Shown here piece by piece: positions 16,924-39,960 of a stretch of DNA of 64,000 nucleotides (position 1 is its first letter; every line of letters begins with the position of its first letter). Made by a program: the position numbers and the translations under genes. Origin of the DNA: Candidatus Komeilibacteria bacterium RIFOXYD1_FULL_37_29. Lineage in GTDB: Bacteria > Patescibacteriota > Patescibacteriia > UBA1558 > GWA2-36-10. The DNA lies in NCBI GenBank assembly GCA_001818495.1, contig MHKS01000005.1, forward strand, positions 250,038 through 314,037. The letters are read 5' to 3'. The notes beneath the pieces were generated by a model. That model worked only from the letters and a program-made list of their open reading frames with translations. It was not told where the DNA came from and searched no databases.

Positions 16924-16952
16924 CTCTGCTTTTCTTAGGGCAGAGATTTTTT
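16924..16952 (+). terminator. Intrinsic terminator, the likely riboswitch expression platform.
   Basis: Hairpin CTCTGC-ttttcttagg-GCAGAG followed by a T-run. Confidence 0.55.
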
Positions 16953-17037
16953 GTATATAATTTATAATTTAAAATATTATGAACCCCGTTAGAAATTCAT
17001 AAAATATAGCGGGGGAATAAAGAGTAAATATAATATT

Positions 17038-19428: not shown

Positions 19429-19596
19429 GGAGAGGTAGCAGATCCCGCGTAGCGGGACCCCGCTTTGCGGGGGTGGTTTAGAAATAGTAAGTTGATAATT
19501 TCATTTAGTTTTGGAGAGGTGGCAGCTCCCGCGCAGCGGGACCCCGCTTTGCGGGGGTGGTTTAGAAATAGTAAGTTGATAATTTCATTTAGTTTT
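19429..19596 (+). repeat. Tandem direct duplication (2 x 84 bp) immediately upstream of tRNA-Ser. Each unit begins with the first 8 nt of the tRNA (GGAGAGGT) and contains two GC hairpins.
   Basis: Units 19429-19512 and 19513-19596 are about 93% identical. Hairpins cccgc-gta-gcggg and ccccgc-ttt-gcgggg. Confidence 0.8.
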
Positions 19597-19686
19597 GGAG
19601 AGGTGCTAGAGTGGTTGAATAGGGTGCTCTCGAAAAGCACTAGTCCTGAAAGGGACTCGGGGGTTCAAATCCCTCCCTCTCCGCCA
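19597..19686 (+). tRNA. tRNA-Ser (anticodon CGA), class II with a long variable arm and an encoded CCA.
   Basis: Manual fold: acceptor GGAGAGG/CCTCTCC, D-stem CTA/TAG, anticodon stem GTGCT/AGCAC, loop CTCGAAA, 16-nt variable arm, T-loop TTCAAAT, discriminator G, CCA. Confidence 0.85.
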
Positions 19687-19706: not shown

Positions 19707-20021
19707 ATGACTAGCCATATGTTATATTATACTTACATTTTATTAAGCTCAAAATCTCATATTTTTTATTTTGGTTCAACGAATAATTTAAAAAATAGAT
19801 TGGAGCTGCATAATAGCGGCAAGGTAACATCAACTAAATCGCATATACCTTGGAAATTAGTTTGGTATTGTGTATTTGAAACGGAAAAACAGGCAAGAGA
19901 TTTTGAGCTTTATTTAAAAACAGGGTCAGGAAAATCTTTTGCTTATAAAAGACTTATTTCCGTGGCTTTAGAGAAGGATTTCAGGGAAGGGAGAATAGGT
20001 AGTCCGAAGCGGAAGCCTTAG
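19707..20021 (+). CDS. Small standalone GIY-YIG nuclease-domain protein.
   Basis: YTYILLSSKSHIFYFGSTNNLKNRLELHNSG matches the GIY…YIG…R…H/N…E catalytic motif set. 104 aa. Confidence 0.7.
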   Translation: MTSHMLYYTYILLSSKSHIFYFGSTNNLKNRLELHNSGKVTSTKSHIPWKLVWYCVFETEKQARDFELYLKTGSGKSFAYKRLISVALEKDFREGRIGSPKRKP

Positions 20022-20033
20022 CTTTTGCGAAGG

Positions 20034-20051
20034 ATACCTCCCTCTCCGCCA
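20034..20051 (+). repeat. Direct repeat of the tRNA-Ser 3' end (17 of 18 nt identical to 19669-19686), an att-like site.
   Basis: ATACCTCCCTCTCCGCCA versus tRNA ATCCCTCCCTCTCCGCCA. It brackets the GIY-YIG gene. Confidence 0.75.
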
Positions 20052-20190
20052 GATTACCAAGTTTGAACCCAAGCAAAATAAGGGTTTTGTGCTATTGAAA
20101 AGCCGGTGTCCGAATAAGGTGCTGATTTTTTAAAATCCTTATCAAATGAGTAAATTTTTGGTAAAATAGAGTTAATAAGAATAGAATTAT

Positions 20191-22020
20191 ATGTCTAAAA
20201 AAATTGATTACGACAACTGGTCAAAAGATGAGATAATCAAGGAGATTAGGCGAATCAAAGAAACTACATACGGACTTGTGTGGCATCGCGACTTACCTGA
20301 GGAAAAAATTGATATTCTTATAAACCCAGATGCTCGGACTCCAAATGAAATGTTCCCTAACGAAATGGCGGGCAAGCCATTTCCAGTTTTGAAAGAGGCA
20401 AAAACAAAAACAATTGAGACTGATAAAAATAAGCCGACAAATATTTTGATTGAGGGTGATAATTATCATTCTCTTGCCGTTTTGAATTTTACTCATCAAG
20501 AAGCAATTGATTTGATTTACATTGATCCGCCTTACAATACTGGCCACAACGATTTTGTTTACAATGATAAAATTAAAAGCGGTTATGTTGTTAAAGATGA
20601 TCCATTTAGGCATAGTAAATGGATTTCTTTCATGGAAAAAAGGTTAAAACTCGCAAAAAATTTATTGAAATCGTCGGGTGTTATTTTTATTAGTATTGAC
20701 GACAATGAATTTGCTCCATTAAAAATGCTGTGTGACGAGATTTTTGATGAAAGTAATTTCATCTCTATGTTGTCAATTGAAAATAATCCTAAGGGACGGA
20801 AAAACTCCGATTTTATATCTATTTGTAATGATTATTGTCTTATATACGCTAAAGACAAAGGTAAAAGTTATTTTGTTGAAAATATTCCCAAACAAGCTGA
20901 CGACTTAACGATTGATGATAATGGAGACTATGTACACAATAGCGGCAAACGGGTCCTTGTTGGAGAAAATAAATTTAATCCGCTTGTAGAAGATTTTGAA
21001 TCAGCTAAGCATTATAGTGTTTATTACAATCAGACTGATAATAAAATTAAAATAGAGGTGGAAAAAAATATTCACGAGGCAAACAAAGATTTATTAAAAA
21101 ACGGATATAAAAGATACTATTCTTATTTTGGAGACAGATTTGTCTTGAATACTTATACAAAATCAAAAATCATAGAGCTTTTCGAAGATGAGGCTCTCGA
21201 ATTCAAAAATGGGAGTATATATGAAAAAAATTTCAGCACAACAATTAGACTAAAAAGTCTTGTTATCAATAAAAAATATGAGGCAGTAATAAATAATGAA
21301 AAAGCAGAATATCAAATAGATGTTAAAACGACTTCAGCGAAGACTGAATTAAAGGATATTTTCAACACTGACCAAATTCCATTTGATAACCCCAAGAATA
21401 TTGGTTTGATAAAATTATTGGTAACATTATTTGAAAATAAATCAATAACTATTTTAGATTTTTTTGCAGGATCGGGAACGACCGGGCATGCAGTCCTTGG
21501 TCAAAATAAAGAAGATGGAGGAAATCGACAATTTATTCTGTGCACGAATAATGAAAATAATATATGCACTGATATCTGCTATCCCCGTCTTGGAAAAGTT
21601 ATAAAGGGATATAAAAATTCAAGAAATGAAAAAATTGATGGTTTGGGTGGAAACCTGAGATATTTTACTGCTTATGACTTTGTAGAAGCTAAGGAAACAG
21701 ATAGAAACAAAAGAAAACTAGTAAACCAATCAACAGAAATGCTTTGCATTAAGGAAAATGCTTTTGAGCTTGTGCAAGAAGTTGAAGATTATAAAATCTT
21801 CAAGAATCATGATAAATATTTGGGAATTATTTTTCATGAAGATTCTATATCGGACTATGTCAAAGCAATAAAAAAGATAAAAGGACACTTTAATACTTAT
21901 ACATTTTCAATGACGGATGATCCTCACAAAGAGGAATTTACTGATGTTGCGGACAAAGTAACTCTTTGTGCAATTCCAGAAATGATTTTGAAAGTATATC
22001 ATGAGATTTTCAAGGAATAA
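20191..22020 (+). CDS. mod: Type III restriction-modification methyltransferase (Mod), a beta-class N6-adenine/N4-cytosine MTase.
   Basis: DPPY (IDPPYNTG) precedes the FxGxG SAM motif (FFAGSGTTGHAV). The adjacent helicase-type res gene overlaps. Confidence 0.75.
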   Translation: MSKKIDYDNWSKDEIIKEIRRIKETTYGLVWHRDLPEEKIDILINPDARTPNEMFPNEMAGKPFPVLKEAKTKTIETDKNKPTNILIEGDNYHSLAVLNFTHQEAIDLIYIDPPYNTGHNDFVYNDKIKSGYVVKDDPFRHSKWISFMEKRLKLAKNLLKSSGVIFISIDDNEFAPLKMLCDEIFDESNFISMLSIENNPKGRKNSDFISICNDYCLIYAKDKGKSYFVENIPKQADDLTIDDNGDYVHNSGKRVLVGENKFNPLVEDFESAKHYSVYYNQTDNKIKIEVEKNIHEANKDLLKNGYKRYYSYFGDRFVLNTYTKSKIIELFEDEALEFKNGSIYEKNFSTTIRLKSLVINKKYEAVINNEKAEYQIDVKTTSAKTELKDIFNTDQIPFDNPKNIGLIKLLVTLFENKSITILDFFAGSGTTGHAVLGQNKEDGGNRQFILCTNNENNICTDICYPRLGKVIKGYKNSRNEKIDGLGGNLRYFTAYDFVEAKETDRNKRKLVNQSTEMLCIKENAFELVQEVEDYKIFKNHDKYLGIIFHEDSISDYVKAIKKIKGHFNTYTFSMTDDPHKEEFTDVADKVTLCAIPEMILKVYHEIFKE

Positions 22021-24262
22021 TTATATGTCATGGATTAATTTTAAAAATTATCAAGAAACTGCAATCGATGAAATACGCGACAAGATTAATGCCCTGCTCA
22101 AAAAAGAGGGTAATAGACTTTGCGTATTCAAAGCTCCGACTGGTTCGGGGAAAACTTTAATGATGGCGGAATGGATGATGAGGTTTTGTGACCCATATTC
22201 GCGAATTGATGGGAAAACTTTTTCTTTTGTATGGATAGCAGTAAATAAATTACATGATCAAAGCCATGACAGTTTAAAAAAGTTTTATGAGCTCAAAGGA
22301 GCGGGGCTTCGTTGTTCATATTTTCACGAACTTGAGGATAGAAAAATAAAACAGAACGAGATTTTATTTTTGAATTGGGCAAGTATCAATAATGAAGACA
22401 AGATTATTGTTCGCGCGAATGAAAGAGATAATAATCTCTCAACAATAATTGATCGGACCAAAGATGCCAGTCGGACAATTATTTTGATTATCGACGAAAG
22501 CCACCATACCGCAAAAAGTAAAAATTCAAAGGCTTTAATAAAAAATATTGACCCTAAAATTACGATCGAGGTTTCTGCTACACCAGAAATTTTTGATTTT
22601 GATGAGCGGGTAACCATTGATATTGAGGATGTACGAAGCGAGGAAATGATAAAGAAAGAAATTGTAGTGAACCCTGGCTTCAAAAATTACACAGTTGATC
22701 CAAAAAAGAACGATCAAACAGCAGACGAATTAATCTTGAAGTCTGCTTTGCAAAAAAGGATTGATTTGCGAAAAAAATTAGAAAAAGATGGTTCAAATGT
22801 CAATCCCTTATTACTTATTCAATTACCGGATACAAAAAAAGGAGTTCCTGATAAAAAAGAGGAGATTGAAACACTTCTTGCTAAATTTGGCTATACAACA
22901 AAAAATGGAAAGTTGGCTGTCTATCTTTCTGAAAAAGATAACAAAATAAATCTTGCTAATATTGAGAAAAATGAAAACGAAGTGGAGGTAATGATGTTCA
23001 AGCAAGCGATTGCACTTGGTTGGGATTGTCCAAGAGCTACAATTCTTGTGCTTTTCCGTCAATGGAAAGATGAAACGATAACATTCTCAATCCAAACATT
23101 GGGAAGAATCATGCGTATGCCTGAGCAAAAACATTATAAAGATCAAGAGTTGAATATTGCTTATCTTTATACTAGTTTACAAGACATTAATACTCGTATT
23201 TTGAAAGGTGCTTCGTCGGGAATAAAATCTCTTACGAGTTATCGCAATGAGAAATATAAAAATATTGACCTAATTTCATATCACTCAAAACGATTCCGTG
23301 AGGAAACTCGTTTGTCTTCTGATTTTGTGAAAATTTTTATCGAAGCCGCTAAAAAAACAAATTTAAAAGATGTTTCGCTAAAAGTCGGGATTGTGAAAAC
23401 AACAATGATCAAAGATGGACGCGTGGAAAATGCGGATAAAGAAATAACAAAGATTGAAAGTGATACTTTTTCTATACCCAAAACAGAGACGGAGCTGCAA
23501 TATACTTTTGATATGTTTGTGCTTGATAATCTTGATCCGTTTGAACATGAAGCCCGTTCTATAAAACGCATAAACGATTCAATTTATACTTTCTTTGGCG
23601 CACGACGCAAAGAAGATGAATGGCCTAAAATACAAGCCACGATACTTTCGTATGAAAAGAATCGCCAAGCTGTAATTGATGCTATTAATCTAGCAAAAGA
23701 TTTATATAAAACCGAAGTTGGAAAAGGCAAAAAAGAACTGATACAAAATGATGAGCCGTGGAATGTGCCAGAAGCTATTAATTTTGATCCGTCATTTGTA
23801 GAGCAAAATTATAAAAAATCTATAATGCAACCATATTACGCTCGTTCTCGGGATGGAGAAAACGGACGATTGTTTGAGGACAGTGAAATTGAAAATGATT
23901 TTATTAAATACCTAGAAAAAGCACAGAAAGTTGTTTGGTGGTTCAGAAATGGGAAACAAGACGGATCATTTTTTGCTGTCCCGCACATTGAACACGGACA
24001 AGAAAAGCCGTTTTATGTTGATTTTATAGTTATGATGAAAAATGGAACTGTTGGGCTTTTTGATACAAAATCAGGATATACTGCCGAACTAGCAAAATCT
24101 CGCTCTGATGGACTTGTAAAATATATTAATGAGCAGAAAAAGAAAAAAATTACTGGCGGAATTGTGAGATACGAAAAGAAAAGTTGGCTATATTTTACTA
24201 ACAAAGAATATAAATATAATCCGAATGATATAAAGGATTGGGAATTTTTGGATTTGAATTAA
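22001..24262 (+). CDS. res: Type III restriction enzyme Res subunit (SF2 helicase plus C-terminal PD-DxK nuclease).
   Basis: Walker A FKAPTGSGKT, DExH IIDESHH, C-terminal VDFIV…GLFDTK. The real start is probably the ATG near 22025. Confidence 0.75.
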   Translation: MRFSRNNYMSWINFKNYQETAIDEIRDKINALLKKEGNRLCVFKAPTGSGKTLMMAEWMMRFCDPYSRIDGKTFSFVWIAVNKLHDQSHDSLKKFYELKGAGLRCSYFHELEDRKIKQNEILFLNWASINNEDKIIVRANERDNNLSTIIDRTKDASRTIILIIDESHHTAKSKNSKALIKNIDPKITIEVSATPEIFDFDERVTIDIEDVRSEEMIKKEIVVNPGFKNYTVDPKKNDQTADELILKSALQKRIDLRKKLEKDGSNVNPLLLIQLPDTKKGVPDKKEEIETLLAKFGYTTKNGKLAVYLSEKDNKINLANIEKNENEVEVMMFKQAIALGWDCPRATILVLFRQWKDETITFSIQTLGRIMRMPEQKHYKDQELNIAYLYTSLQDINTRILKGASSGIKSLTSYRNEKYKNIDLISYHSKRFREETRLSSDFVKIFIEAAKKTNLKDVSLKVGIVKTTMIKDGRVENADKEITKIESDTFSIPKTETELQYTFDMFVLDNLDPFEHEARSIKRINDSIYTFFGARRKEDEWPKIQATILSYEKNRQAVIDAINLAKDLYKTEVGKGKKELIQNDEPWNVPEAINFDPSFVEQNYKKSIMQPYYARSRDGENGRLFEDSEIENDFIKYLEKAQKVVWWFRNGKQDGSFFAVPHIEHGQEKPFYVDFIVMMKNGTVGLFDTKSGYTAELAKSRSDGLVKYINEQKKKKITGGIVRYEKKSWLYFTNKEYKYNPNDIKDWEFLDLN

Positions 24263-24265
24263 ATT

Positions 24266-25450
24266 ATGGCATTAGAATCAGAAAAATTGGAAGAAAAAAT
24301 AGTTGATAATTATTTTACTGATACTCTATATAGTAGTCGGGAATTTAAGGGTGGAGTAGGTAAATTTTTTACAATAGTATCTCAGGATGAAAATGATATC
24401 CCAAATGTAGTTGATGTTGAGCATTCGTATCCTATACGCAATAAAATAAAGACAACGCTGACATTTATCAAAAAAGAAAACGAAATTACAGCCATTTCCT
24501 TTAAGCGTTTTAAATATTATAAAAAAGAACATTGGGTTGAACAACCAGAAGAACAGATTACTTTTTCATACAGTCTTTTTAAAAAAATTATTGGGTATTT
24601 ACAGTTACTATCAGAATTAAATTTGTCGGCTATTAGTGAGCGAAGAATTGCTTTAGCCGATGACACATTACCGAATATTGACGATGAAACAAAAAAGAAG
24701 ATTAAAACATTGCTTTTACGCAAAGATGGGCAAAAAATTATTGAGGAATTAATAAATAGCGGAATAATTACATCAACCGATATTGTAAATATCGGGTATC
24801 GAAAAAAACAACTTGATGTTTTTGAGAAGCTCCTGACACAACCCGATTATTTTGCAACCTATATAACTGAAAGTAAAATTACAGATACTCGTCATGAGTC
24901 TGTTTGGCAACATTTCTTCCATTCTAATGATTGGATTTTTGGATATGGACTAGATTATCGCTTTCTTGGCATCCTGCAAAAAGAAGCTCATATTTCAAAT
25001 ACAGACGTCGCAGGAAAAGGGGCTGTTATAAATGATTTTCTACTCGGGTGCAATAAATTCACCGTTTTGGTTGAATTAAAAAAACACGACACACCATTAT
25101 TTGGAAAAGACAAAAACCGGTCAAACTCTTGGACACTTTCAGATGATTTAATATCTGGTCTATCTCAAATATTAGAGCAAAAAGCTAGTTGGCAGGTTTC
25201 GGCCGAGACAAATGCAAGTGGAAATTTTGACGATAAGGGTAATTTGATAAAACAAAAAACTATCGATCCAAAAAGTATCTTAGTTATCGGATCAACAAAG
25301 CAATTTGATGGTGATGATAAAGAAAATCAAATTAAAGCAAAAACCTTTGAACTTTTTAGACGAGATTCAAGAAATATAGAAATTCTTACTTATGACGAAC
25401 TGTATGAGAGAGCGAAGTTTATTGTTGAACATAAACAGAAAGACAACTAG
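24266..25450 (+). CDS. Protein with a C-terminal PD-(D/E)xK nuclease-like core, possibly Shedu/DUF4263-like. Third gene of the R-M operon.
   Basis: E…VINDFLL…VLVELKK fits an E-D-ExK arrangement. Start lies 4 nt after the res stop. Confidence 0.45.
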   Translation: MALESEKLEEKIVDNYFTDTLYSSREFKGGVGKFFTIVSQDENDIPNVVDVEHSYPIRNKIKTTLTFIKKENEITAISFKRFKYYKKEHWVEQPEEQITFSYSLFKKIIGYLQLLSELNLSAISERRIALADDTLPNIDDETKKKIKTLLLRKDGQKIIEELINSGIITSTDIVNIGYRKKQLDVFEKLLTQPDYFATYITESKITDTRHESVWQHFFHSNDWIFGYGLDYRFLGILQKEAHISNTDVAGKGAVINDFLLGCNKFTVLVELKKHDTPLFGKDKNRSNSWTLSDDLISGLSQILEQKASWQVSAETNASGNFDDKGNLIKQKTIDPKSILVIGSTKQFDGDDKENQIKAKTFELFRRDSRNIEILTYDELYERAKFIVEHKQKDN

Positions 25451-25793: not shown

Positions 25794-26387
25794 ATGGATC
25801 AACAAACAATCAATACATACAACAGGATGTCACAAGAGTATGATGATGAAACAGCTGATTTTTGGGAGCGATTTCCTCGAACATTTCTTGATAAATTTAT
25901 TAAGCTATCCGGTAATAAAATACTTGATGTTGGGAGCGGACCAGGTAGAGATGGTTTGATACTTCAACAGGCCGGTAAAAATGTTGTCTGTGTGGATGCT
26001 TCTGCAGCAATGGTGAAATTGTCTTCAGACAGAGGTTTAAACTCTATAGTAGCCAGTTTCGACAATTTACCATTTGAAAATAATTCATTTGACGGCGTAT
26101 GGTCATATACTGCTCTTTTACATATTCCCAAAAAATCTATCGATACCCCTCTTCAAGAGATTTTTCGTATTATCAAACCTTCAGGTATTTTTGCTCTTGG
26201 TCTGATTGAAGGGGACACAGAAGGATACAAAGAAAGCTCTGAAGTGACTATGCCTCGTTGGTTTAGTTTCTATCAGAAAGACGAAGTTGAAAATTTATGC
26301 CAAAAGCACGGATTTGAGCTGGTTTACTTTGAGACTTTTAAACCAGGGTCCAAGCCCTATTTGAATTTTATTTTTCGAAAAATATAA
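25794..26387 (+). CDS. Class I SAM-dependent methyltransferase (small, 197 aa).
   Basis: ILDVGSGPGRDG motif I, post-I acidic residue, DGVWSYTALLH motif. Confidence 0.7.
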   Translation: MDQQTINTYNRMSQEYDDETADFWERFPRTFLDKFIKLSGNKILDVGSGPGRDGLILQQAGKNVVCVDASAAMVKLSSDRGLNSIVASFDNLPFENNSFDGVWSYTALLHIPKKSIDTPLQEIFRIIKPSGIFALGLIEGDTEGYKESSEVTMPRWFSFYQKDEVENLCQKHGFELVYFETFKPGSKPYLNFIFRKI

Positions 26388-26417
26388 TACTACTAGAACA
26401 TTTTTATCTATCTCAAT

Positions 26418-26665
26418 TTTCACTGTCTTTTCAGGCAGTTTTTTGGTATAATCAAAGCATTAATTAATAAAAATATTATGATTGACGAAGAAATAAAGCA
26501 AATTATTCAGGAAAATAAGGACACTTTGGCTAATATTGATAAAAGGATTGGTCGGATTGAGAAAAATTTTATTTGGAGTTCAATTTTTGGTTTTATAAAG
26601 ATTGTTATTATTGTAGCACCGATTGTTTTTGGTATTATTTATTTTACGCCATTTTTGAAAGATTT
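26418..26665 (+). repeat. Left copy of an approximately 248-bp direct repeat (promoter plus the 5' portion of a small membrane-protein gene).
   Basis: About 95% identical to 33401-33648. Confidence 0.85.
26444..26452 (+). promoter_or_regulatory. Extended -10 promoter element (TGgTATAAT) for the small membrane-protein gene. An identical copy lies at 33427-33435.
   Basis: TGGTATAAT 26 nt upstream of the ATG, duplicated inside the direct repeat. Confidence 0.55.
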
Positions 26666-26690
26666 AAATAAATTGGGTATTATTACATAA
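26478..26690 (+). CDS. Small coiled-coil/TM protein, a truncated paralog of 33461..33811.
   Basis: The first 60 aa are nearly identical to the 33461 copy, then the sequence diverges and ends. Confidence 0.55.
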   Translation: MIDEEIKQIIQENKDTLANIDKRIGRIEKNFIWSSIFGFIKIVIIVAPIVFGIIYFTPFLKDLNKLGIIT

Positions 26691-26707
26691 TTAAGAAATG
26701 GTAGTAT

Positions 26708-28426
26708 ATGAAAAAGTCAAAAGTCATATTAGGGATTACTGCCTTTAATCATGATTCTTCGGCGTGCTTAATTTATCAAGGTAGAGTAATTGCATTTTGT
26801 GAGGAGGAAAGATTCAATGGCATAAAACATACCGGAGATTTTCCGATAAAATCAATTTTATTTTGTTTAGAAAAAGCTGGTTTGTCATTAAATGATGTGA
26901 CTGATGTAGCTTTTTATTTTAATATTAAAAAATGTTTATTGAGTTATATAAAGAACAATAATCCACTCTATTATATTATTCATCCATCTTTATTTAAGAG
27001 GAAAAGATTTTATTATGAAATTATTTGGTTATTTAGTTTTATAAACAAAATTAATTCAATTAAAAAACTCCTTAATAATTATAAGATAAAGATTACTTAT
27101 GTAGATCATCATATGGCGCACGCTTGGTATGGGTATTTTTCTTCAAATTTTAAAAATTGCACGGTAGTTTCTAATGACAGCGTAGGCGAGAGTGTGAGTA
27201 GTTTAGCCGTAAAGATACAGAGAGAAGATAAAAAAATTATTTTTGGTAAGACATTCAGTCAAACAGACCCTCACTCTATTGGGTATTTGTATGGTGCTAT
27301 AACTGAATTTTTAGGATTCAAAAGAGGTCAAGACGAAGGAAAGGTTATGGCTATGGCGGCTTTAGGGAAAGATAAATATGTAAAATATTTTGATGACTTG
27401 ATTAGATATTTACCTAATGGGGAATTTAGAATAAGTAAGGAGTTGATTTCCTTACGTAATTTTCAGCCAAAATCACAAAGATTAAGCAATGATTTTTTAA
27501 AAAAATTTGGATATTATCGTCAACCCCAAGAACCATTTATCCAAAAGCATTATGATATTGCTTATGCAATACAAGGGGTAACGGAAAAAATTTTATATCA
27601 CCAATTAAAATATATTAATGATGATAATATAGTCATTACTGGTGGTATTGCTCAAAATAGTGTAGCCAACGGGAAACTCAACAATTTTTTTTATAAAAGA
27701 AATATATTTATTCCTCCGATTCCTAATGATGCCGGGTGTGGTATTGGCGCGGCGCTTTCTTTATATTATAAGTATTATGAAGATTTACCAGAGTTTGTGG
27801 ATACTGCGTTTTTAGGCCCAGAATTTTCTGATCATAAAATCATTAAAACATTAGAAAATAATAAAATAAATTTTAAAATTATAAAAAATCAGACGGAATT
27901 CATTATTAATGAGCTTTTGAAAAATAAGATTATCGCTATATATAGAAATGAGATGGAGTGTGGTCCTAGGGCATTAGGTAATAGGAGTATAATAGCCAAT
28001 CCAATTGATCCGGCGATGAAGAATTACATCAATGAAAAAATAAAACACCGTGAATTTTTTCAGCCATACGGCGGGTTGATTATTGATAAAAATGTTAAAG
28101 AAGTATTTGATTATAAGAATAAAAATATTTCCGGACCATATATGTCTTTTGTTTATCCAATTAAAGATAAATGGTTAAAAATGTTTCCATCTTTGGTTCA
28201 TTTTGATAAAACTTCTAGAATTCAAATAATAAAGAAGGAACAAAATTTTTTATATAGTCTCTTGGAAGAATTTTATAAAAAAACAGGTGTCCCCGTAATT
28301 ATAAATACTTCCCTTAATTTAAGAGGGCAGCCTATGGCAAGAAGCCATCAAGATGCTTTAAACACATTTTATAATTCGGGGATTCATTATATTTTATTTA
28401 ATAACAGTATTCTAGTTTCAAAATGA
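26708..28426 (+). CDS. Carbamoyltransferase, NodU/CmcH/NovN family (O-carbamoyltransferase).
   Basis: N-terminal ILGITAFNHDSSACL…CEEERFNGIKH and DHHMAHAW, the hallmarks of the NodU/CmcH family. 572 aa. Confidence 0.75.
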   Translation: MKKSKVILGITAFNHDSSACLIYQGRVIAFCEEERFNGIKHTGDFPIKSILFCLEKAGLSLNDVTDVAFYFNIKKCLLSYIKNNNPLYYIIHPSLFKRKRFYYEIIWLFSFINKINSIKKLLNNYKIKITYVDHHMAHAWYGYFSSNFKNCTVVSNDSVGESVSSLAVKIQREDKKIIFGKTFSQTDPHSIGYLYGAITEFLGFKRGQDEGKVMAMAALGKDKYVKYFDDLIRYLPNGEFRISKELISLRNFQPKSQRLSNDFLKKFGYYRQPQEPFIQKHYDIAYAIQGVTEKILYHQLKYINDDNIVITGGIAQNSVANGKLNNFFYKRNIFIPPIPNDAGCGIGAALSLYYKYYEDLPEFVDTAFLGPEFSDHKIIKTLENNKINFKIIKNQTEFIINELLKNKIIAIYRNEMECGPRALGNRSIIANPIDPAMKNYINEKIKHREFFQPYGGLIIDKNVKEVFDYKNKNISGPYMSFVYPIKDKWLKMFPSLVHFDKTSRIQIIKKEQNFLYSLLEEFYKKTGVPVIINTSLNLRGQPMARSHQDALNTFYNSGIHYILFNNSILVSK

Positions 28427-29247
28427 TTAAAGATTTTCAAAAGATAGAGTTTTTAAAATCACTTTACAGTGATAAAGACTTAATATCGTTTCGTGGCAAT
28501 TTTTTAAAAAATAATTCCAACCGTAAATTCTCATTAAGATCTTTTATTATTAAACTTTTGCCGATGCTAAAGGATAAAAAAATATTAGACATTGGTTGCG
28601 GAGACGGGTCATTCCTCAATAAATTACATACGGTATATCCTCAAAATAAATATTTTGGTTTGGATGTAGTAGATAATGCTAAATGCCATAAATTGAAATT
28701 TCTTGACTACAAAATTTATGATGGTAAATCCAGGGTTTATTATACGGAAAAATTTGATGTGATATTTTGTATGCACACTGTTTATCATATCGAAGATTTA
28801 TTCACTTTTTTTACAACGATGAAAGACTATTTAAAGCCCCATGGCATTATTATCATTACTACGAAGTCTAAATTGACTTTTCCTAAAATAGAATCAATCT
28901 TTTTAAAGATTGTCGGTAAGCTTGACTTAAAAAAATATTTAAAAATTAGCAAACACAGAGAGGAATCAAAATTTTGTTTGGAGAACGGATTAAACAGATT
29001 AAAAAAACACTTCGCTAGGCGGTCATTTAGTATAAATGAGTATGTTTTAGAAACGCAGGTTTTTGTTAATGACAAAAAAGATCTTTTGAAATATGTTTTT
29101 TCTACAAATAGATATAATATTTTGAAAGATACTTTAAACAAAAAAATTGTTGAAAAATATACAAAACTTTGGTTTGAAGAAATTGATAAAGATCAGATAT
29201 TCATTGATAAATATACGGAGGCTGTTTATTTAATAAAAAAATTATGA
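28423..29247 (+). CDS. Class I SAM-dependent methyltransferase.
   Basis: ILDIGCGDGSF motif I, D at the end of beta2, FDVIFCMHTVYH. Overlaps its neighbours and lies in the operon. Confidence 0.7.
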   Translation: MIKDFQKIEFLKSLYSDKDLISFRGNFLKNNSNRKFSLRSFIIKLLPMLKDKKILDIGCGDGSFLNKLHTVYPQNKYFGLDVVDNAKCHKLKFLDYKIYDGKSRVYYTEKFDVIFCMHTVYHIEDLFTFFTTMKDYLKPHGIIIITTKSKLTFPKIESIFLKIVGKLDLKKYLKISKHREESKFCLENGLNRLKKHFARRSFSINEYVLETQVFVNDKKDLLKYVFSTNRYNILKDTLNKKIVEKYTKLWFEEIDKDQIFIDKYTEAVYLIKKL

Positions 29248-30311
29248 AAATAGGTTATAGTTGCTGGGGATTTTTGGGTAACGGAATAAAGGATACACCG
29301 GATGGCGGGAGGAGTCACCGGTTGACTTTATTGAAAGAATTAATCCGTCAAGGAGTTGAAATAGTAATGTTGCAAAAGAATAGAGACCTCATTGAAGGCA
29401 ATCAAAGTTTTTCACGAAAGAATTTAATATTTAGTGGTGAGTTACCGGAAATAGATGCTCTATTTGTAGAATATAGATGGAAGATAGTAGGAAGGAATTA
29501 TAAGGTGAGAAAAAATAATCCAGCCTATACTCCGGATTTCGATAGACAGAGTGAATTAATTAATTTTTATAATAATAGAAATATTCCTATTATTATTTGG
29601 GATAAAGATCAGAAACTTGGTAAGAATGAAATAAAAGGCATTAAAAATTTGATTGTATTTGAACCTGCTTTAAAGCCAAGGTTTAATAGAAAAAGTTTAT
29701 TGTTTCCGATGGACAATCATAGAACAAAAATTGTCCTCAAATTGATAGGTAAGTATAAAAAAAATATTAAGAGCTCCAAGTTGTGTTACATTGGAAATCA
29801 ATATGAGAGAGATGGTAGTTTTAAAGAGTTTATTAATAAGCCAGCCAGTATGCTCGATACCAAAACACCAGTATTTGGTAATTGGAACAAATATCCAGAA
29901 AAGTATAAGCAAAATATGCAAAAATTTTCCAATGTTGAATTTAAAGGTAGGGTGCAGTTTAATAAAGTTAATAATATTTATAAAAAATCTTTTTCTACAG
30001 TTCTTATCGCGCCACGGAGATATTATATCACGGGTCATTTTACACAAAGATTATTTGAGGCAATGTGGGGCTTATGCATTCCTTTTACCCCGCAGCAATA
30101 TCATGGATGGCAGGGTTTAATAATAAAAGATTTTATAATTAGATCTGGCAAAGATTTAATAAATAAGATAAAAAAATTAGAAACAACGCCCGATTCAGAT
30201 ATAAGGAGAATGTTTGATAGACAGTTTGAGAAACTTAATTTATTTAATGCCAGTAAACAAGCCAGTATAATTATAAACGAAATCAATAATCATAATGGTA
30301 GACTCGGGTAA
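29244..30311 (+). CDS. GT-B glycosyltransferase resembling phage T4 DNA beta-glucosyltransferase (BGT), a candidate hydroxymethyl-pyrimidine DNA glycosyltransferase.
   Basis: 355 aa versus BGT at 351 aa. An MKI…N-terminus, YIGNQYERDGSFKEFI against BGT YGGSFRSGQRESKMVEFL, and FTQRLFEAMWGLCIPF against BGT ITLRVWETMASDAVMLI. The comparison is from memory and needs confirmation. Confidence 0.5.
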   Translation: MKIGYSCWGFLGNGIKDTPDGGRSHRLTLLKELIRQGVEIVMLQKNRDLIEGNQSFSRKNLIFSGELPEIDALFVEYRWKIVGRNYKVRKNNPAYTPDFDRQSELINFYNNRNIPIIIWDKDQKLGKNEIKGIKNLIVFEPALKPRFNRKSLLFPMDNHRTKIVLKLIGKYKKNIKSSKLCYIGNQYERDGSFKEFINKPASMLDTKTPVFGNWNKYPEKYKQNMQKFSNVEFKGRVQFNKVNNIYKKSFSTVLIAPRRYYITGHFTQRLFEAMWGLCIPFTPQQYHGWQGLIIKDFIIRSGKDLINKIKKLETTPDSDIRRMFDRQFEKLNLFNASKQASIIINEINNHNGRLG

Positions 30312-31074
30312 TAAAAATAAATCTTTAGAAATTGTAATTGATTCTAAACACTATATTAAAAAAAGATATTCTGATATCCAACGTTTTTTTTGTGAATTAA
30401 AATATCTTAAATATTTTAAAGATGAAGATATCAATGTTCCTTTTATATATAAATTTGATAAAATCCAAAAAACAATAATAATAGATAAAATAAAGGGGAA
30501 AATCGGCGATTCATTAAATAATAGAGACACAAAACTATGCATTGATGTGCTTGTCAAAATAATTTTTATTTTTGGTTTGGAAAAGAAAAATAATAATGAA
30601 ATTGATAGGTATATTTCAAAAGTCAGGTCAAATATAATATGGTGGTGTGAAAATAATAATTATATAGTAGAAAAAGAAAAATTAAATATTTTACTTCAAA
30701 AGTTAAGAAAAGTGTGTTATATATCTTTATTCAAAGATGCCAAACCATCTAATTGGATTTTTCAAAAAGATAAAATATACGCAATAGACTTTGATTATGT
30801 AAAAAAATCATTTTTTTTAGCAGATTTAGCACAACTTTTAAGTTATATTTCATTAAGGAAAAAAATAAGTTATATTTTCTTTGTAAATTATTATCTAAAG
30901 CAAATATTCCCAAAAATGAAGGATTATGATAAATTTTATATACCTTTTAAATTAGCGCTTGTTAATTCCAACATTGCTTCTGAACTTCACAGAGAGAATT
31001 TAGGAGCCTATGTAAAAAGGGGTTTTGCCAAACAAAACAGGTTTATTTTGAGTGAATTTAAGATAATATTATAA
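30295..31074 (+). CDS. Small protein-kinase-like fold phosphotransferase (Kdo-kinase/APH-like).
   Basis: Catalytic-loop-like FKDAKPSNWIF (D-x-K-P-x-N) and IYAIDFDY (DFG-equivalent). 259 aa. Confidence 0.5.
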   Translation: MVDSGNKNKSLEIVIDSKHYIKKRYSDIQRFFCELKYLKYFKDEDINVPFIYKFDKIQKTIIIDKIKGKIGDSLNNRDTKLCIDVLVKIIFIFGLEKKNNNEIDRYISKVRSNIIWWCENNNYIVEKEKLNILLQKLRKVCYISLFKDAKPSNWIFQKDKIYAIDFDYVKKSFFLADLAQLLSYISLRKKISYIFFVNYYLKQIFPKMKDYDKFYIPFKLALVNSNIASELHRENLGAYVKRGFAKQNRFILSEFKIIL

Positions 31075-31955
31075 TGTCAATATCAATAACCGCCAAATCA
31101 GCTAATGAAGCATTCATTAAAATAGCTGATAAATTGTATAATAATCCGGAATATGTTTCTAGTCCTCGAAGCTGGGAAACAAGGGAGTTATTAGGGGCTT
31201 TTATTGTTATCAACAATCCCTATGATCGTTTTATAAATAATGTTCATAGGAAGATTTCTTTAAAGTATCTTATTGGTGAATGGTTATGGTATGAGCGAGG
31301 ATCCAATTCTTTAAATGAAATTAATTATTATGCAAAATTTTGGAGCAGTATTTCGGATGATAAAATAACTGCCAATTCAGCTTATGGTCATAGAATTTTA
31401 GGGATCAATAAGTTCGTGATTATTAATCAATGGAAGTGGGCCAAACGGCAAATAATAAAAGATAAGGAAACAAGGAGAGCCATCATTTTTATTGGATTGC
31501 CAAGTGATATGAAAAACGAAACGAAAGATTTTCCTTGCACTATGTCACTCCAGTTTTTAATAAGAAATAATGAGTTACATTTAATTTGCAATATGAGGAG
31601 CAATGATTTAGTATTGGGTTTTACTTATGATGTAGCTACCTTTACTTTATATCAAGAAAAAATGTTGTTGGAGTTGAAAAAATATTATCCAAAATTAAAG
31701 ATAGGTAAATATTTTCATATGGTAGGCAGTTTACACGTATATAAGAAAAACTATGAGATGATAAAAAAAGTGATAAATGATCAGGACAATAATTTGAAAA
31801 TTACCATGCCTCGCATGGGTGATTTAAAAGAAATAAAAAAACTCCAGTATAACGAGAGTATTATAAGAGAAAATAAAAATAAAAAGTTTAAAAAAATTGA
31901 AGATAGATTCTGTATCTGGTGTCAGAATATTTTATTAAATAAAATTAAATACTAA
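31074..31955 (+). CDS. Thymidylate-synthase-family pyrimidine hydroxymethylase, predicted dCMP hydroxymethylase (T4 gp42-like).
   Basis: ThyA-fold motifs EWLWYERG, catalytic Cys in FPCTMSLQF and MRSNDLVLGFTYDVATF. This aligns gap-free to E. coli ThyA QRSCDVFLGLPFNIASY with Asp at the Asn177 position, which is the cytosine-specificity switch. Confidence 0.6.
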   Translation: MSISITAKSANEAFIKIADKLYNNPEYVSSPRSWETRELLGAFIVINNPYDRFINNVHRKISLKYLIGEWLWYERGSNSLNEINYYAKFWSSISDDKITANSAYGHRILGINKFVIINQWKWAKRQIIKDKETRRAIIFIGLPSDMKNETKDFPCTMSLQFLIRNNELHLICNMRSNDLVLGFTYDVATFTLYQEKMLLELKKYYPKLKIGKYFHMVGSLHVYKKNYEMIKKVINDQDNNLKITMPRMGDLKEIKKLQYNESIIRENKNKKFKKIEDRFCIWCQNILLNKIKY

Positions 31956-31956
31956 A

Positions 31957-32628
31957 ATGAAAGGCATAATTATAGACGGAGTTGTTTCTTCTGGTAAAAC
32001 GTCTATCTTAAAACATCTTCATCGTCTGATTTCAGAACAAAACCCTACTTCAACCAAGTTTTTTATTAGTGAACACTATACTGAGAGAATGTTGGAGCAT
32101 TTGAAAGATAAAGGTGAATTAGACGGTAGCCATATAAAAGCCCACGTTGATCAGTTAATCCATACTTTAGCTTCTTTTCAGTCTATGTTGGATAATTCTA
32201 AGTTTCGTGATAACCCGAAAGGAGCAGATTTGTTTGTTACTTTAGAAAGATTTATTCTAACCCATTTGTCCTCAGTGGACATAGGAGATAAATATAGTCT
32301 TGATGAAGTCAAAGCTCATTTTGAAATTTTAAACAAGCTAGGAGTAAAACAAGTAGCTTTAATAATTCCCGAATCAAGACTAAAAGAAAATATCATGTCG
32401 ACTCTGCAATATCGAAATGACGCCTGGTTGGATTATTTGTATTCTAGGGGTGGAGAAAAAGAAATTATAGAATATTATATCAATTGGCAGAATAATTTTT
32501 TAGAGTATATCAACAAATTTAAAGATATAATAGATACCTTAGTCATCGAAGTAAAAGATCAAGACTATCTTCAATATAGTAATACTATTTTTAATAGTTG
32601 TATTAAATCAGATATTCTCTCAAAATAA
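31957..32628 (+). CDS. P-loop nucleotide kinase (dNMP-kinase-like, possibly T4 gp1-like, or a 5-hm-pyrimidine kinase).
   Basis: Walker A GVVSSGKTS similar to T4 gp1 GVKRSGKDT. No Tmk DRY/TxEPGG motifs. 223 aa. Confidence 0.45.
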   Translation: MKGIIIDGVVSSGKTSILKHLHRLISEQNPTSTKFFISEHYTERMLEHLKDKGELDGSHIKAHVDQLIHTLASFQSMLDNSKFRDNPKGADLFVTLERFILTHLSSVDIGDKYSLDEVKAHFEILNKLGVKQVALIIPESRLKENIMSTLQYRNDAWLDYLYSRGGEKEIIEYYINWQNNFLEYINKFKDIIDTLVIEVKDQDYLQYSNTIFNSCIKSDILSK

Positions 32629-33114
32629 ATGTTTTTTAATTTTATGTTTTTTATACTTTACCCCGGCTAAATCAAAGAGTTTTTTAGAAACGATAAAATT
32701 ATTCGCATCTTTGTCTGATCTATCATCTTGATAGATTATATTTTTTATGCCGCTTTGGATAATAATTTTTGCACACTCATTGCAGGGGAAGAGTAAACAG
32801 TAAAGTTTTGCATTTTCGGCTGATTGATTAGTATTTAAAATGGCATTTACTTCAGCGTGAACAACATACGGATATTTTGTATTTAAGATATTTTTTTTGT
32901 TATGCCCGTAATTATTACTCCAAGAAAAATGCCCTTCCTTAATACCTCTAGGCCAACCGTTGTAGCCAACTCCTAAAACAACATTATTTTTATCAACCAC
33001 GACAGCTCCGGTTTGAGTTGATGGGTCTTTTGATCTCTGAGCTATAACTTGAGCCATTAGCATAAATGTTTCATCCCACGATAAATAGTTTTTTCTAGCT
33101 TTTATATTATCCAT
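32620..33114 (-). CDS. dCMP deaminase (deoxycytidylate deaminase, zinc-dependent).
   Basis: HAEVNAI and PCNECAKII zinc-binding motifs. 164 aa. Confidence 0.85.
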   Translation of the reverse strand: MDNIKARKNYLSWDETFMLMAQVIAQRSKDPSTQTGAVVVDKNNVVLGVGYNGWPRGIKEGHFSWSNNYGHNKKNILNTKYPYVVHAEVNAILNTNQSAENAKLYCLLFPCNECAKIIIQSGIKNIIYQDDRSDKDANNFIVSKKLFDLAGVKYKKHKIKKHLF

Positions 33115-33400
33115 TTTTGTAGGTTAGATCACTTTATAAGAATATAATACCCCATACTTATCTTAAAAGTCAAAGATTATAACTATTATTTTTATGTCGA
33201 AACTAGTCAACAAACTAAAACCGAGAAAAATTTTTGGTTGTCAGAAAGAAGCTTGAATAATATAGGCAAGAAAGAGAGTTTTATTATAATGCTCGGAGGA
33301 GATATGTGAAATATTATGAACCAAACATTTAATTCGCAATGATTACTGGTTGTTCTATATAAAAAGATAGAGCCGTTAGTGTTAGTTGACGATTTCTGTT

Positions 33401-33648
33401 TTTCACTGTCTTTTCAGGCAGTTTTTTGGTATAATCAAAGCATTAATTAATAAAAATATTATGATTGACGAAGAAATAAAGCAAATTATTCAGGAAAATA
33501 AGGAAACTTTAGCTAATATTGATAAAAGAATTGGTCGGATTGAGAAAAATTTTATTTGGAGTTCAATTTTTGGTTTTGTAAAGATTGTTATTATTTTAGG
33601 GCCGATTATTTTTGGTATTATTTATTTTACGCCATTTTTAAAAGATTT
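33401..33648 (+). repeat. Right copy of the approximately 248-bp direct repeat.
   Basis: About 95% identical to 26418-26665. Confidence 0.85.
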
Positions 33649-33811
33649 TATTCGTATTTATGAACCATTTTTCAAGAATCTACCGATTACTTTACAAAAT
33701 TTAAACAATCCTTCTTCGGACTCAAATATTCCAACTGGCGCTCAGGCTGGGTTAGAAAATTTTTGTGATCCACAAGTTCGCGAGGCCATGATCGATAGTC
33801 TTTGTAAATAA
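33461..33811 (+). CDS. Small coiled-coil/TM protein, the full-length paralog of 26478..26690.
   Basis: The ORF track gives 33386..33811. The ATG at 33461 corresponds to the start of the paralog and lies downstream of the duplicated promoter. Confidence 0.55.
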   Translation: MIDEEIKQIIQENKETLANIDKRIGRIEKNFIWSSIFGFVKIVIILGPIIFGIIYFTPFLKDFIRIYEPFFKNLPITLQNLNNPSSDSNIPTGAQAGLENFCDPQVREAMIDSLCK

Positions 33812-33817
33812 AAAATC

Positions 33818-34903
33818 ATGGAAGAATTACGCAGTAAAATAAAAACTTTATTTTTGGAGATTTCTAAATCTTTGAAAATTTTTGATTTAGAAAATAAAAA
33901 AAGTAAATTGGGAGAACTCAAAAACGAAATGACCAGACCAGACTTTTGGAATGACCAAGAACGAGCCAAAAATATTAGCTGGCAAGCCAGTGTTTTGGAG
34001 AAGGGTATCAATGACTGGCAGAATATAGCCAAGGAAGTAGCCGAGCTTAATGATTTGTCTCAAGATCAGCAGGCTGAGGAGTTATTAAAAGAATTGGAAA
34101 ATAAGTATAATATTCTTTATAATCAATTTACATCTTTGGCCGTTCAACTTTTTCTGCAAGGAAAATATGACGAGCTAGCCGCTATCATCACTGTCAATGC
34201 TGGAGCCGGAGGAGTAGATGCTCAAGACTGGGCGCAAATGATCGAAAGAATGTATTTACGACTAGCTGAGAAAAATAATTGGCAGGTCCATTTGATGTCG
34301 CGTTCAGTCGGCTCGGAAGCAGGGATTAAAAGTGTGATTTTTAAAGTCCAAGGTCCTTATGCTTATGGCTATTTAAAAAACGAAGCTGGAGTACATCGTT
34401 TGGTCCGTTTGTCGCCTTATGATGCTGATCACGCCCGGCATACTTCTTTTGCTATGTTAGAAGTTTTGCCGGAGATAATCAATCCGGAGATAGATATCAA
34501 AGAAGAAGATATCAAAGTTGATACTTTTCGGTCTTCTGGTAATGGCGGTCAGTCGGTCAATACTACTGATTCGGCTGTGCGGGTGACACATCTACCAACG
34601 GGAATTTCCGCTGGCTGTCAAAACGAGAGATCACAGATACAAAATAAAAAGCAAGCTCTCAGTCATCTCTACGCCAAATTGCAAAAATATTATGAGGCCG
34701 AGCAAGAAGACGAAAGAAAAATGATAAAGGGAGAATATACCGAAGCGGCTTGGGGCAATCAAATTCGCTCTTATGTTATTCATCCGTATAAAATGGTCAA
34801 AGACCATCGGACAAATTTTCAGTCCAAAGATCCAGACAGGGTCTTAGGTGGAGATTTAATGCCATTTATTAAGGCCAATTTGGAAAAAAATGTAGTGGCC
34901 TAA
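33818..34903 (+). CDS. prfB: Peptide chain release factor 2.
   Basis: SPxD-region, GGQ motif (SGNGGQSVNTTDSAVR). Full-length with no frameshift required. Confidence 0.85.
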   Translation: MEELRSKIKTLFLEISKSLKIFDLENKKSKLGELKNEMTRPDFWNDQERAKNISWQASVLEKGINDWQNIAKEVAELNDLSQDQQAEELLKELENKYNILYNQFTSLAVQLFLQGKYDELAAIITVNAGAGGVDAQDWAQMIERMYLRLAEKNNWQVHLMSRSVGSEAGIKSVIFKVQGPYAYGYLKNEAGVHRLVRLSPYDADHARHTSFAMLEVLPEIINPEIDIKEEDIKVDTFRSSGNGGQSVNTTDSAVRVTHLPTGISAGCQNERSQIQNKKQALSHLYAKLQKYYEAEQEDERKMIKGEYTEAAWGNQIRSYVIHPYKMVKDHRTNFQSKDPDRVLGGDLMPFIKANLEKNVVA

Positions 34904-39381: not shown

Positions 39382-39960
39382 ATGAATTTTAAAGAGGAAA
39401 AAACATTTGTGATGATCAAGCCGGACGGTGTCCGCAAGAATCTGATTGGCGAAATTATTGCTCGTTTTGAACAACGCGATTTAAAAATAGTAGCTTTGGA
39501 AATGTTTCAGCCAACTGTTGCCCAGATTGATGAGCATTATCCCAAGGATAAGGCTTGGATCGCTCGCTTGGGTCAAAAAACTTTAAGTACTTATGAAAAA
39601 TACGGAGTTGATCCGATTAAAGAGCTGGGTACTGACAATGATTTTGAAATTGGTCAGATGGTCCGCAAGTGGTTGGTTGATTATATGACCTCTGCTCCTT
39701 TGGTTAGAATGGTGGTCCAAGGTATTCATGCGGTTGATATGGTTCGTAAAATTTGCGGTGTCACTATTCCCAATATGGCTGACATGGGTACTATTCGTGG
39801 TGATTTTTCCTCTGATTCTCCTTCAGTAGCTAATAGTGAAAAAAGAGCAGTAATGAATTTGATCCATGCGTCTGAAACTCCGCAAGAAGCTGAACACGAA
39901 ATGAAACATTGGTTTGGAAGCAGAAAGGTTATATTCAATTACGAGCGTTACCAAGATTAA
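39382..39960 (+). CDS. ndk: Nucleoside diphosphate kinase.
   Basis: TFVMIKPDGV, and His in NLIHASE. 192 aa with an insertion. Confidence 0.8.
   Translation: MNFKEEKTFVMIKPDGVRKNLIGEIIARFEQRDLKIVALEMFQPTVAQIDEHYPKDKAWIARLGQKTLSTYEKYGVDPIKELGTDNDFEIGQMVRKWLVDYMTSAPLVRMVVQGIHAVDMVRKICGVTIPNMADMGTIRGDFSSDSPSVANSEKRAVMNLIHASETPQEAEHEMKHWFGSRKVIFNYERYQD

Follow-up and report, generated by a model that had tools for sequence, protein, structure and literature searches.

What does a bacterial operon modify when it places a carbamoyltransferase, a methyltransferase and a small-molecule kinase beside a thymidylate synthase (TS)-fold enzyme and a distant relative of the phage T4 DNA beta-glucosyltransferase (BGT)? 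The question is raised by a locus in a 64,000-nucleotide stretch of contig MHKS01000005.1 (positions 250,038 to 314,037; hereafter the window, to which coordinates refer unless another locus is named), assigned to Candidatus Komeilibacteria bacterium RIFOXYD1_FULL_37_29, a member of the candidate phyla radiation (CPR). The locus, positions 26417-33648 (7 kb), is a horizontally acquired, low-GC mobile cassette of seven genes, and the comparisons below strongly support one mobile, multi-phylum pathway, which probably acts on a 5-hydroxymethyl-deoxycytidine scaffold. In our view the cassette represents a T4-type pathway in mobile, bacterial form, with tailoring enzymes added; that DNA is the final destination of the decorated 5-hydroxymethylcytosine (hmC) is proposed tentatively, at somewhat less than even confidence.

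The genes form a tight operon on the forward strand, opening with an O-carbamoyltransferase of the NodU/CmcH/TobZ type (26708-28426, 572 aa) and continuing with a generic BioC/UbiG-like class-I S-adenosylmethionine (SAM)-dependent methyltransferase (28423-29247, 274 aa), a GT-B glycosyltransferase (GT; 29244-30311, 355 aa), a protein-kinase-like small-molecule kinase of the APH/Bud32/CotS type (30295-31074, 259 aa), a TS-fold pyrimidine hydroxymethylase predicted to be a dCMP 5-hydroxymethylase (31074-31955, 293 aa), and a P-loop nucleotide or nucleoside kinase (31957-32628, 223 aa). A dCMP deaminase gene (32620-33114, minus strand, 164 aa; dCMP_cyt_deam_1, 2.4e-23) converges with the operon. 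Stop and start codons overlap by 4 nt between carbamoyltransferase and methyltransferase, 4 nt between methyltransferase and GT, 17 nt between GT and kinase, and 1 nt between kinase and TS, a 1-nt gap separates the TS and P-loop genes, and terminator-like hairpins were found at none of the gene junctions of the operon. Two 249-bp direct repeats (26417-26665 and 33400-33648), 96% identical to each other, enclose all of these genes, including the deaminase, and GC content falls to 27-30% across 26-32 kb against 36-45% in the flanks. The original prediction, made from the sequence of this stretch, had read the overlapping genes as a single pathway; a six-frame list of open reading frames (ORFs) reproduces its gene coordinates and overlaps exactly, and its carbamoyltransferase, methyltransferase, kinase-fold and BGT-like assignments are borne out by the matches given below. 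Its boundaries were too narrow, as the unit also takes in the P-loop kinase, the dCMP deaminase and the repeats.

The same unit recurs across distant lineages. More than 250 sequences of the protein collection belong to the GT family, and a relative is encoded in 312 species genomes, from which the best 80 loci were sampled for the neighbourhood counts. In this sample the GT is adjoined by the carbamoyltransferase in 76 of the 80 loci and by the TS-like gene in 75, with the same neighbours in at least four phyla. Carriers outside the actinomycetes considered further below include Paceibacteria, Saccharibacteria, Woesebacteria, a Rickettsiales metagenome-assembled genome, Amoebophilaceae, Anaerolineae, Acidimicrobiia, Solirubrobacterales, and Agrobacterium. 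The methyltransferase and the APH-like kinase also occur in the relatives' clusters, methyltransferase orthologues being found in those of CPR, actinomycetes and Agrobacterium. In close CPR-like relatives the operon runs His_Phos_1, carbamoyltransferase, methyltransferase, GT::kinase, TS, P-loop, epimerase, the GT and kinase forming one 592-aa protein; the kinase part of one such fusion (P0010) is 58% identical to the window kinase. The tight operon, the linkage of TS, carbamoyltransferase and GT across phyla, and the GT::kinase fusions together argue that these enzymes serve one pathway, as had been proposed from the overlaps. Moreover, the copy in Saccharibacteria has rve and IS1595 transposases at its flanks. 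No paper describing this gene combination was found.

The nature of the scaffold is indicated mainly by the TS-like enzyme (Thymidylat_synt, 5e-22). Among solved structures it ranks MilA first (1.5e-30), followed by T4 dCMP hydroxymethylase (1.3e-17) and true TS (9e-14 or weaker). The window protein has catalytic C155 together with R134, S176, and D186, and in the 79 cluster TS sequences C155 and the Asp are invariant, the Arg is present in 78, and the residue at the position of S176 is a Ser in 44 and a Gly in 35. According to the structural study of MilA, Lys133/Ala176 confers ribo preference and Arg/Ser deoxy preference (PMC5175136), and an Asp at the position of E. coli TS Asn177 selects cytosine over uracil (PMC5175136, PMC8670742). 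Because it combines the Asp for cytosine with the Arg/Ser pair for 2'-deoxy, the TS-like enzyme is probably a dCMP hydroxymethylase. A MilA-like route from CMP is disfavoured, since the window enzyme has Arg and Ser, pointing to a deoxy substrate, in place of the Lys133/Ala176 pair of the ribo enzymes MilA and BcmA. That the product is hydroxymethyl rather than methyl is suggested by the hydroxymethylases outranking TS and by the presence of partner enzymes that depend on a hydroxyl group.

The two other nucleotide enzymes are compatible with this assignment. The P-loop protein has a P-loop and a nucleoside monophosphate kinase fold, thymidylate-kinase-like, with a DRY/ERS-like motif, and may phosphorylate hydroxymethyl-dCMP (hm-dCMP) or supply dCMP. 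A dCMP deaminase gene belongs to the cluster, either within it or as its last gene, in four lineages distant from one another: the window, Saccharibacteria (L011), Woesebacteria (L012), and Anaerolineae (L047). TS, carbamoyltransferase, and dCMP-deaminase domains likewise co-occur on cytosine-modified phage contigs (PMC8670742), so the recurrence of the deaminase supports a DNA destination.

The second line of evidence comes from the GT, which has no match in Pfam (E<=0.01) or NCBIfam and whose homologues carry the annotation CgeB-like (Glyco_trans_1_2). A profile built from 20 family members and compared with 177,635 PDB sequences returned a single match, T4 BGT (E 8e-7), aligning residues 154-330 with 159-337 and placing the UDP-sugar-binding Arg269 and Glu272 of BGT against the family-invariant R269 and E272. 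On this profile evidence the GT is a true, distant homologue of T4 BGT; its fold is GT-B, as in family GT63, and membership of that family is suggested by the distant homology of the C domain. The N domain, which lies outside the alignment with BGT, carries many invariant charged residues, including a WDKD motif (D120, D122) after a beta-strand, at a position that we take to be comparable to that of the BGT catalytic base Asp100. A Foldseek search of the GT against viral structures gave generic GT-B matches only and was non-discriminating.

The tailoring enzymes belong to recognisable classes. The carbamoyltransferase has the two-domain architecture of its superfamily, with a Kae1/ASKHA-like N domain (Carbam_trans_N, 1.2e-41, residues 7-350) and a YrdC-like C domain (Carbam_trans_C, 3.6e-54, residues 402-569), and contains the motifs VDHHMAHA and ECGPRALGNRS, which, by analogy with TobZ, presumably form the His-rich metal site and the carbamoyl-adenylate site (GPRALGxRS). 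Its best PDB matches are the small-molecule O-carbamoyltransferases 7xb6 (9e-66), then GdmN, NovN, and TobZ (down to 2e-50). The methyltransferase is placed in its class by Methyltransf_23 (3.6e-16). For the kinase, the window protein contains FKDAKPSNW and IDFD and gives weak matches to Bud32 (2e-6) and to APH (0.0035, a score of 17.6 bits and thus below the Pfam cut-off of 23.2), and orthologues match APH at 4e-8 and 7e-8. Residues K23, D148, N153, D165, and D167, corresponding to the N-lobe Lys, D-x4-N, and D(F)D, are invariant in 10 orthologues, and the family profile matches Bud32, the CotS-type YtaA, and APH weakly in the PDB.

Taken together, these enzymes would copy the hmC logic of phage T4 and add three tailoring steps. 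Judging from its specificity residues, the TS-fold enzyme would convert dCMP into 5-hydroxymethyl-dCMP; the dCMP deaminase would trim the competing dCMP/dCTP pool, while the P-loop kinase and the housekeeping nucleoside diphosphate kinase (NDK; 39382-39960) would raise hm-dCMP to the triphosphate; and replication would then incorporate hmC into DNA. The BGT-like enzyme would add a hexose, with the 5-CH2OH group as the presumed acceptor, after which, from their enzyme classes, the carbamoyltransferase would O-carbamoylate, the methyltransferase methylate, and the APH-like kinase phosphorylate the sugar. Alternatively, the carbamoyl group may be placed directly on the 5-CH2OH, as in 5-carbamoyloxymethylcytosine (5cmC), in which case the GT would need another acceptor. 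The outcome would be decorated glycosyl-hmC in replicated DNA, shielding it from nucleases. In its widest form, the proposal is that about 300 species of free-living and episymbiotic bacteria, among them CPR, Streptomyces, Kitasatospora, Micromonospora, and Agrobacterium, replace part of their chromosomal cytosine with glycosylated hmC whose sugar is O-carbamoylated, methylated, and/or phosphorylated, by means of a mobile cassette that either descends from the T-even pathway or gave rise to it; this we put forward with still greater reserve, at roughly one chance in three. To our knowledge, this would be the first case of a glycosylated base in the cellular DNA of bacteria, and also the first of a DNA glycan that is tailored.

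Comparison with known systems places the cassette between several of them. The T4 pathway comprises the gp56 dCTPase, gp42 dCMP hydroxymethylase, gp1 dNMP kinase, cd dCMP deaminase, and alpha- and beta-glucosyltransferases, and the cassette shares with it a TS-fold hydroxymethylase with Asp and Arg/Ser, a P-loop enzyme resembling a dNMP kinase, a dCMP deaminase, and a GT-B homologue of BGT. It differs in residing in bacterial chromosomes, in having three extra tailoring enzymes and, in the window copy, no dCTPase, and in a GT of very low identity to BGT, with homology detectable in the C domain only (E 8e-7); for the cassette, moreover, DNA is a proposed substrate. A precedent for a mobile bacterial island that puts a complex base modification into the host's own DNA is the Dpd 7-deazaguanine system, which differs in base, chemistry, and enzymes, and has a dedicated restriction module, whereas none is conserved with the cassette. 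The mildiomycin and bacimethrin enzymes MilA and BcmA are likewise TS-fold cytosine hydroxymethylases encoded in bacterial multi-gene clusters with tailoring enzymes, but in the cassette Lys133/Ala176 is replaced by Arg/Ser (Arg/Gly in Streptomyces), a MilB-type N-glycosidase is missing, and the partners are others.

The closest functional precedent for carbamoylation is a phage enzyme with demonstrated carbamoyltransferase activity on 5hmC in DNA and on hm-dCTP, and weak activity on RNA (PMC8670742); paired with a TS homologue, it makes 5cmC in phage (Yang et al., eLife 2021, PMC8670742). The cassette enzyme shares its two-domain superfamily and its coupling to a TS homologue and a dCMP deaminase, the neighbourhood characteristic of the phage clade. 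However, it comes from bacteria and is only 22% identical to the validated phage enzyme (pairwise E 7e-13), which rules out orthology; at the positions of TobZ W408/G421/R423 (TobZ numbering inferred) the cluster enzymes have L/V/I, G, and R, against I, C, and T in the phage enzyme. The cassette, moreover, always has a GT, unlike the phage system, so the carbamoyl group may sit on the sugar rather than on the 5-CH2OH. Phage DNA glycan hypermodification (bioRxiv 10.1101/2023.12.21.572611; RB69 arabinosyl-hmC) also relies on GT-B enzymes that place sugars on 5hmC, with sugar-nucleotide enzymes in the clusters, but proceeds by MT/TET or T4-like routes in phages, and carbamoyl, kinase, or phosphoryl decoration is unmentioned in that preprint. 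The statement in the original prediction that no such hypermodification is known thus has to be divided: it does not hold for carbamoylated hmC, since 5cmC was published in 2021 (PMC8670742), and it stands for a decorated sugar on hmC, which is described in neither PMC8670742 nor bioRxiv 10.1101/2023.12.21.572611. Judged by sequence, by specificity residues, and by defence-system models, respectively, the cassette falls outside the phage 5hmC carbamoyltransferase clade, the MilA/BcmA ribo clade, and known defence systems.

Whether the decorated hmC is destined for DNA is the central issue. A DNA destination is suggested by the T4-like enzyme set, the homology to BGT, a sister module in a phage, the recurrent dCMP deaminase, the absence of a transmembrane family, and restriction-modification (R-M) or defence neighbours in two lineages. 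The phage module lies on a phage-like IMG/VR contig of 41 kb that is rich in ORFans (L093) and reads: sigma factor; dUTPase_2/MazG-like protein; thymidylate-kinase (TMPK)-like P-loop protein (IEGPHNTGKS...DRF); GT; TS; DnaE; RecA-like; Mre11-like; Rad50-like. All N-terminal residues that are invariant in the bacterial family, those of DTPDGGRSHR and WDKD among them, are kept in its GT, and its TS has the R/S/D signature at 38% identity. This T4-like arrangement, by analogy, argues that the acceptor of the GT family may be an hmC deoxynucleotide destined for DNA. As a separate observation, the nucleotide-modification and replication module of this phage is flanked by two proteins (8562-9245 and 16382-17365 of the contig) that consist almost wholly of long D/E runs alternating with K-rich runs.

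A number of findings weigh against DNA as the destination. Neither the GT nor the kinase has a tblastn match in 50,697 deposited phage genomes, and in the 2.9 million contigs of IMG/VR the GT has one relative, that of L093, at 30% identity; the distribution therefore gives no support to the GT as a phage-type enzyme. The carbamoyltransferase has diverged far from the validated phage 5hmC enzyme and keeps the canonical G and R, no nuclease partner that would make the modification a self-marker is conserved with the cluster, and the lack of a dCTPase in the window cassette means that cytosine replacement would be partial. The remaining adverse findings also speak for a rival that we consider unlikely, although a serious one, namely that the cluster directs the biosynthesis of a soluble natural product of nucleoside or nucleotide type, a 5-hydroxymethyl-(deoxy)cytidine with glycosyl, carbamoyl, and methyl groups that would serve as an antimetabolite or antibiotic in the manner of mildiomycin or bacimethrin. 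The GT and tailoring enzymes would then act on a mononucleotide, with the APH-like kinase and phosphatases cycling a phosphate for biosynthesis or self-protection.

Such a product would suit the distribution, in which secondary-metabolite-rich actinomycetes (Streptomyces, Kitasatospora, Micromonospora, Actinoplanes, Nonomuraea, Saccharopolyspora) dominate the GT carriers, and the closest solved relatives of two core enzymes: the TS-like protein is nearer overall to the CMP hydroxymethylase MilA of mildiomycin biosynthesis than to T4 gp42, and the carbamoyltransferase is nearest to the small-molecule enzymes named above. Relatives of the cassette also carry variable accessory genes, including His_Phos_1 and HAD phosphatases, a second APH, a sulfotransferase with genes for synthesis of 3'-phosphoadenosine 5'-phosphosulfate (CysNC), a GalE-like epimerase, a KdsB-like cytidylyltransferase above the NCBIfam cut-off, and MutT-like NUDIX enzymes, and the Agrobacterium operon contains an ABC-2 exporter, seen once; the phosphatases, second APH, sulfotransferase, KdsB-like enzyme, and exporter fit a soluble product better than DNA. 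In addition, the invariant charged residues of the GT N domain would be expected for a defined small ligand, and the GT orthologues of actinomycetes have a median pI of 6.2 and a net charge of -4, an acidity unusual for an enzyme binding double-stranded DNA, although charge is an ambiguous proxy here, the CPR proteins all being basic and the actinomycete clusters combining an acidic GT with a basic carbamoyltransferase.

Against a soluble product, the cluster has no conserved transporter: its conserved families contain no transmembrane segments, and a polytopic membrane protein occurs within 8 kb in only 10 of 48 loci. A MilB/BlsM-type N-glycosidase is likewise missing from the cluster, the TS-like enzyme has the deoxy-type Arg/Ser and not the Lys/Ala of MilA and BcmA, and the embedded dCMP deaminase and TMPK-like kinase are hard to explain for an exported nucleoside. 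Furthermore, the one PDB entry with sequence homology to the GT is a DNA glucosyltransferase, the phage sister module adjoins a DNA polymerase, and no paper on a matching compound was found. CPR bacteria, with their tiny genomes, rarely carry antibiotic clusters.

Several features of the actinomycete clusters stand apart from this question. In Streptomyces L029 (11553-12341 of that locus) and similar loci, the KdsB-like enzyme is of the CMP-Kdo synthetase type (251 bits against a cut-off of 193), and, because Streptomyces is Gram-positive and has no lipopolysaccharide, an unusual activated sugar acid may be involved in this variant. The extended Streptomyces cluster also includes an adenosylhomocysteinase-like NAD enzyme, and a 600-aa protein conserved in the Streptomyces clusters has no Pfam or PDB match. 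Upstream of actinomycete clusters (L007 4379-5710, minus strand; L054 4256-4744; and similar loci) stand a divergent XRE-HTH/TPR regulator and an HATPase_c_2 anti-sigma-like protein, a pair that we take to resemble the WhiJ/AbaA-type developmental regulatory sets.

A further explanation, which we regard as improbable, is that the cassette is an anti-phage or conflict system acting on the nucleotide pool, in which induced diversion of dCMP/dCTP into bulky hydroxymethyl-deoxycytidine derivatives starves or poisons phage replication without marking host DNA, in a way analogous in spirit to dCTP deaminase or viperin-type defences. It draws on the position of the window cassette in a tRNA-Ser-linked island right after a Type III R-M system and Shedu, on the Anaerolineae copy abutting a Type IIG R-M enzyme, on the mobility of the cassette (direct repeats, insertion sequence elements), on the cytoplasmic nature of all its proteins, and on the dCMP deaminase, NUDIX enzymes, and kinases all acting on the deoxycytidine pool. 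The defence context is, however, confined to two of about 10 inspected non-actinomycete loci, and the Streptomyces copies adjoin WhiJ-like developmental regulators, not defence genes. PADLOC 2023, moreover, matched no specific model to the cassette, returning only the generic mad2 for the methyltransferase and nothing for the carbamoyltransferase, GT, kinase, or TS, so the cassette is not a defence system modelled there; it shows no sensor or effector architecture, and its four tailoring enzymes would be unnecessary for simple pool depletion. Finally, the tailoring enzymes could have RNA or a glycan of the cell envelope or of proteins as their target, with TS linked incidentally. This notion recalls surface glycan pathways, which typically contain CgeB-like GTs, NodU-type carbamoyltransferases, sulfotransferases, and KdsB-like enzymes, and it recalls the weak activity of the phage 5hmC carbamoyltransferase on RNA. 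It is very improbable: TS, carbamoyltransferase, and GT adjoin one another in 75-76 of the 80 loci and in several phyla, which cannot be incidental; the cluster proteins lack signal peptides and transmembrane segments; neither a flippase nor a polyprenyl-phosphate transferase is present; and the core members include genes of nucleotide metabolism (TS, TMPK-like kinase, dCMP deaminase, NUDIX).

The distinction between DNA and a soluble product determines what the cassette would mean. If the product is in DNA, sugar-type base hypermodification would be a mobile trait of cellular genomes, industrial actinomycetes and CPR among them, and no phage speciality, with a bearing on restriction and defence biology, sequencing artefacts, the genetic tractability of strains, and enzymes for hmC-mapping chemistry, the last because carbamoylation of 5hmC blocks deamination by APOBEC3A. 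If the product is soluble, the cassette would define a family of metabolites derived from deoxycytidine that is widespread and as yet uncharacterised. In both cases a testable functional context emerges for about eight protein families that still await characterisation. The question can be addressed directly in cultivable carriers, among them Kitasatospora setae KM-6054, whose cluster occupies about 3,633,800-3,641,800 of AP010968.1, many Streptomyces, including S. tanashiensis JCM 4086, Micromonospora sp. WMMD729, and A. tumefaciens (GCA_009498535.1).

In the window itself, the cassette is set in the chromosome of a Candidatus Komeilibacteria (CPR) bacterium, not in a phage; proteins identical to those of the window are on deposit under the name Candidatus Komeilibacteria bacterium RIFOXYC1_FULL_37_11, which belongs to the CPR and comes from aquifer metagenomes. 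Downstream lie genes for release factor 2 (RF2), ComEC, a metallo-beta-lactamase-fold protein, NDK, and ribosomal proteins including S12, and a prophage origin of the window is ruled out by the RF2, ComEC, NDK, and S12 genes in the flanks and by the absence of phage structural genes. The right repeat copy (33400-33648) spans the promoter and 5' end of an intact 116-aa gene (33461-33811) encoding a small membrane protein, and the left copy (26417-26665), identified by repeat search and alignment, duplicates a terminator-like hairpin (26422-26439), a promoter-like box (TGgTATAAT), and the first approximately 63 codons of that gene. Because of this duplication, the 70-aa ORF at 26478-26690 (plus strand; no Pfam match), a truncated duplicate of the N-terminus of the 116-aa protein, is probably a remnant that gives the operon its promoter or leader. 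A search for a cassette-free allele of the insertion site yielded only contigs breaking at the repeat.

Ahead of the cassette, tRNA-Ser (19597-19686) is followed directly by a defence island with a gene for a 104-aa GIY-YIG protein, a Type III R-M system (Mod, 20191-22020, 609 aa, overlapping Res, 22001-24262, 753 aa), and the Shedu nuclease SduA (24266-25450; PADLOC, 1.7e-154); this island (19707-25450) adjoins the cassette, but other genomes do not keep the two together. A gap of 343 bp after Shedu leads to an orphan class-I SAM methyltransferase of 197 aa (25794-26387), which precedes the cassette and was not counted as a member of it, being located beyond the repeats and showing no conservation with the cluster. 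In the Anaerolineae locus (L047, 11238-14636 of that locus) an FGE-sulfatase-domain protein comes after the cluster, together with a Type IIG enzyme of 843 aa, an Eco57I-like methylase fused to a BsuBI/PstI endonuclease, and a deaminase-domain gene stands between the methyltransferase and the GT.

Directly upstream of the tRNA-Ser(CGA) gene of the window are two tandem 84-nt repeats (19429-19596, 96% identical), each opening with GGAGAGGT, the first 8 nt of the tRNA-Ser, and containing a GC-rich hairpin, CCCGCG...CGGGACCCCGC...GCGGGG; the sole Rfam match at 19429-19686 is the tRNA-Ser itself. The RF2-like gene (33818-34903) is a single 361-aa ORF in the window and in loci L003/L095, and is called as 259 aa plus 108 aa in the ANAN16 scaffold of the same population (L002/L094), which may reflect a strain variant or a frameshift. 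At the start of the window, positions 77-10813 are occupied by one ORF of 3,578 aa with a TTG start.

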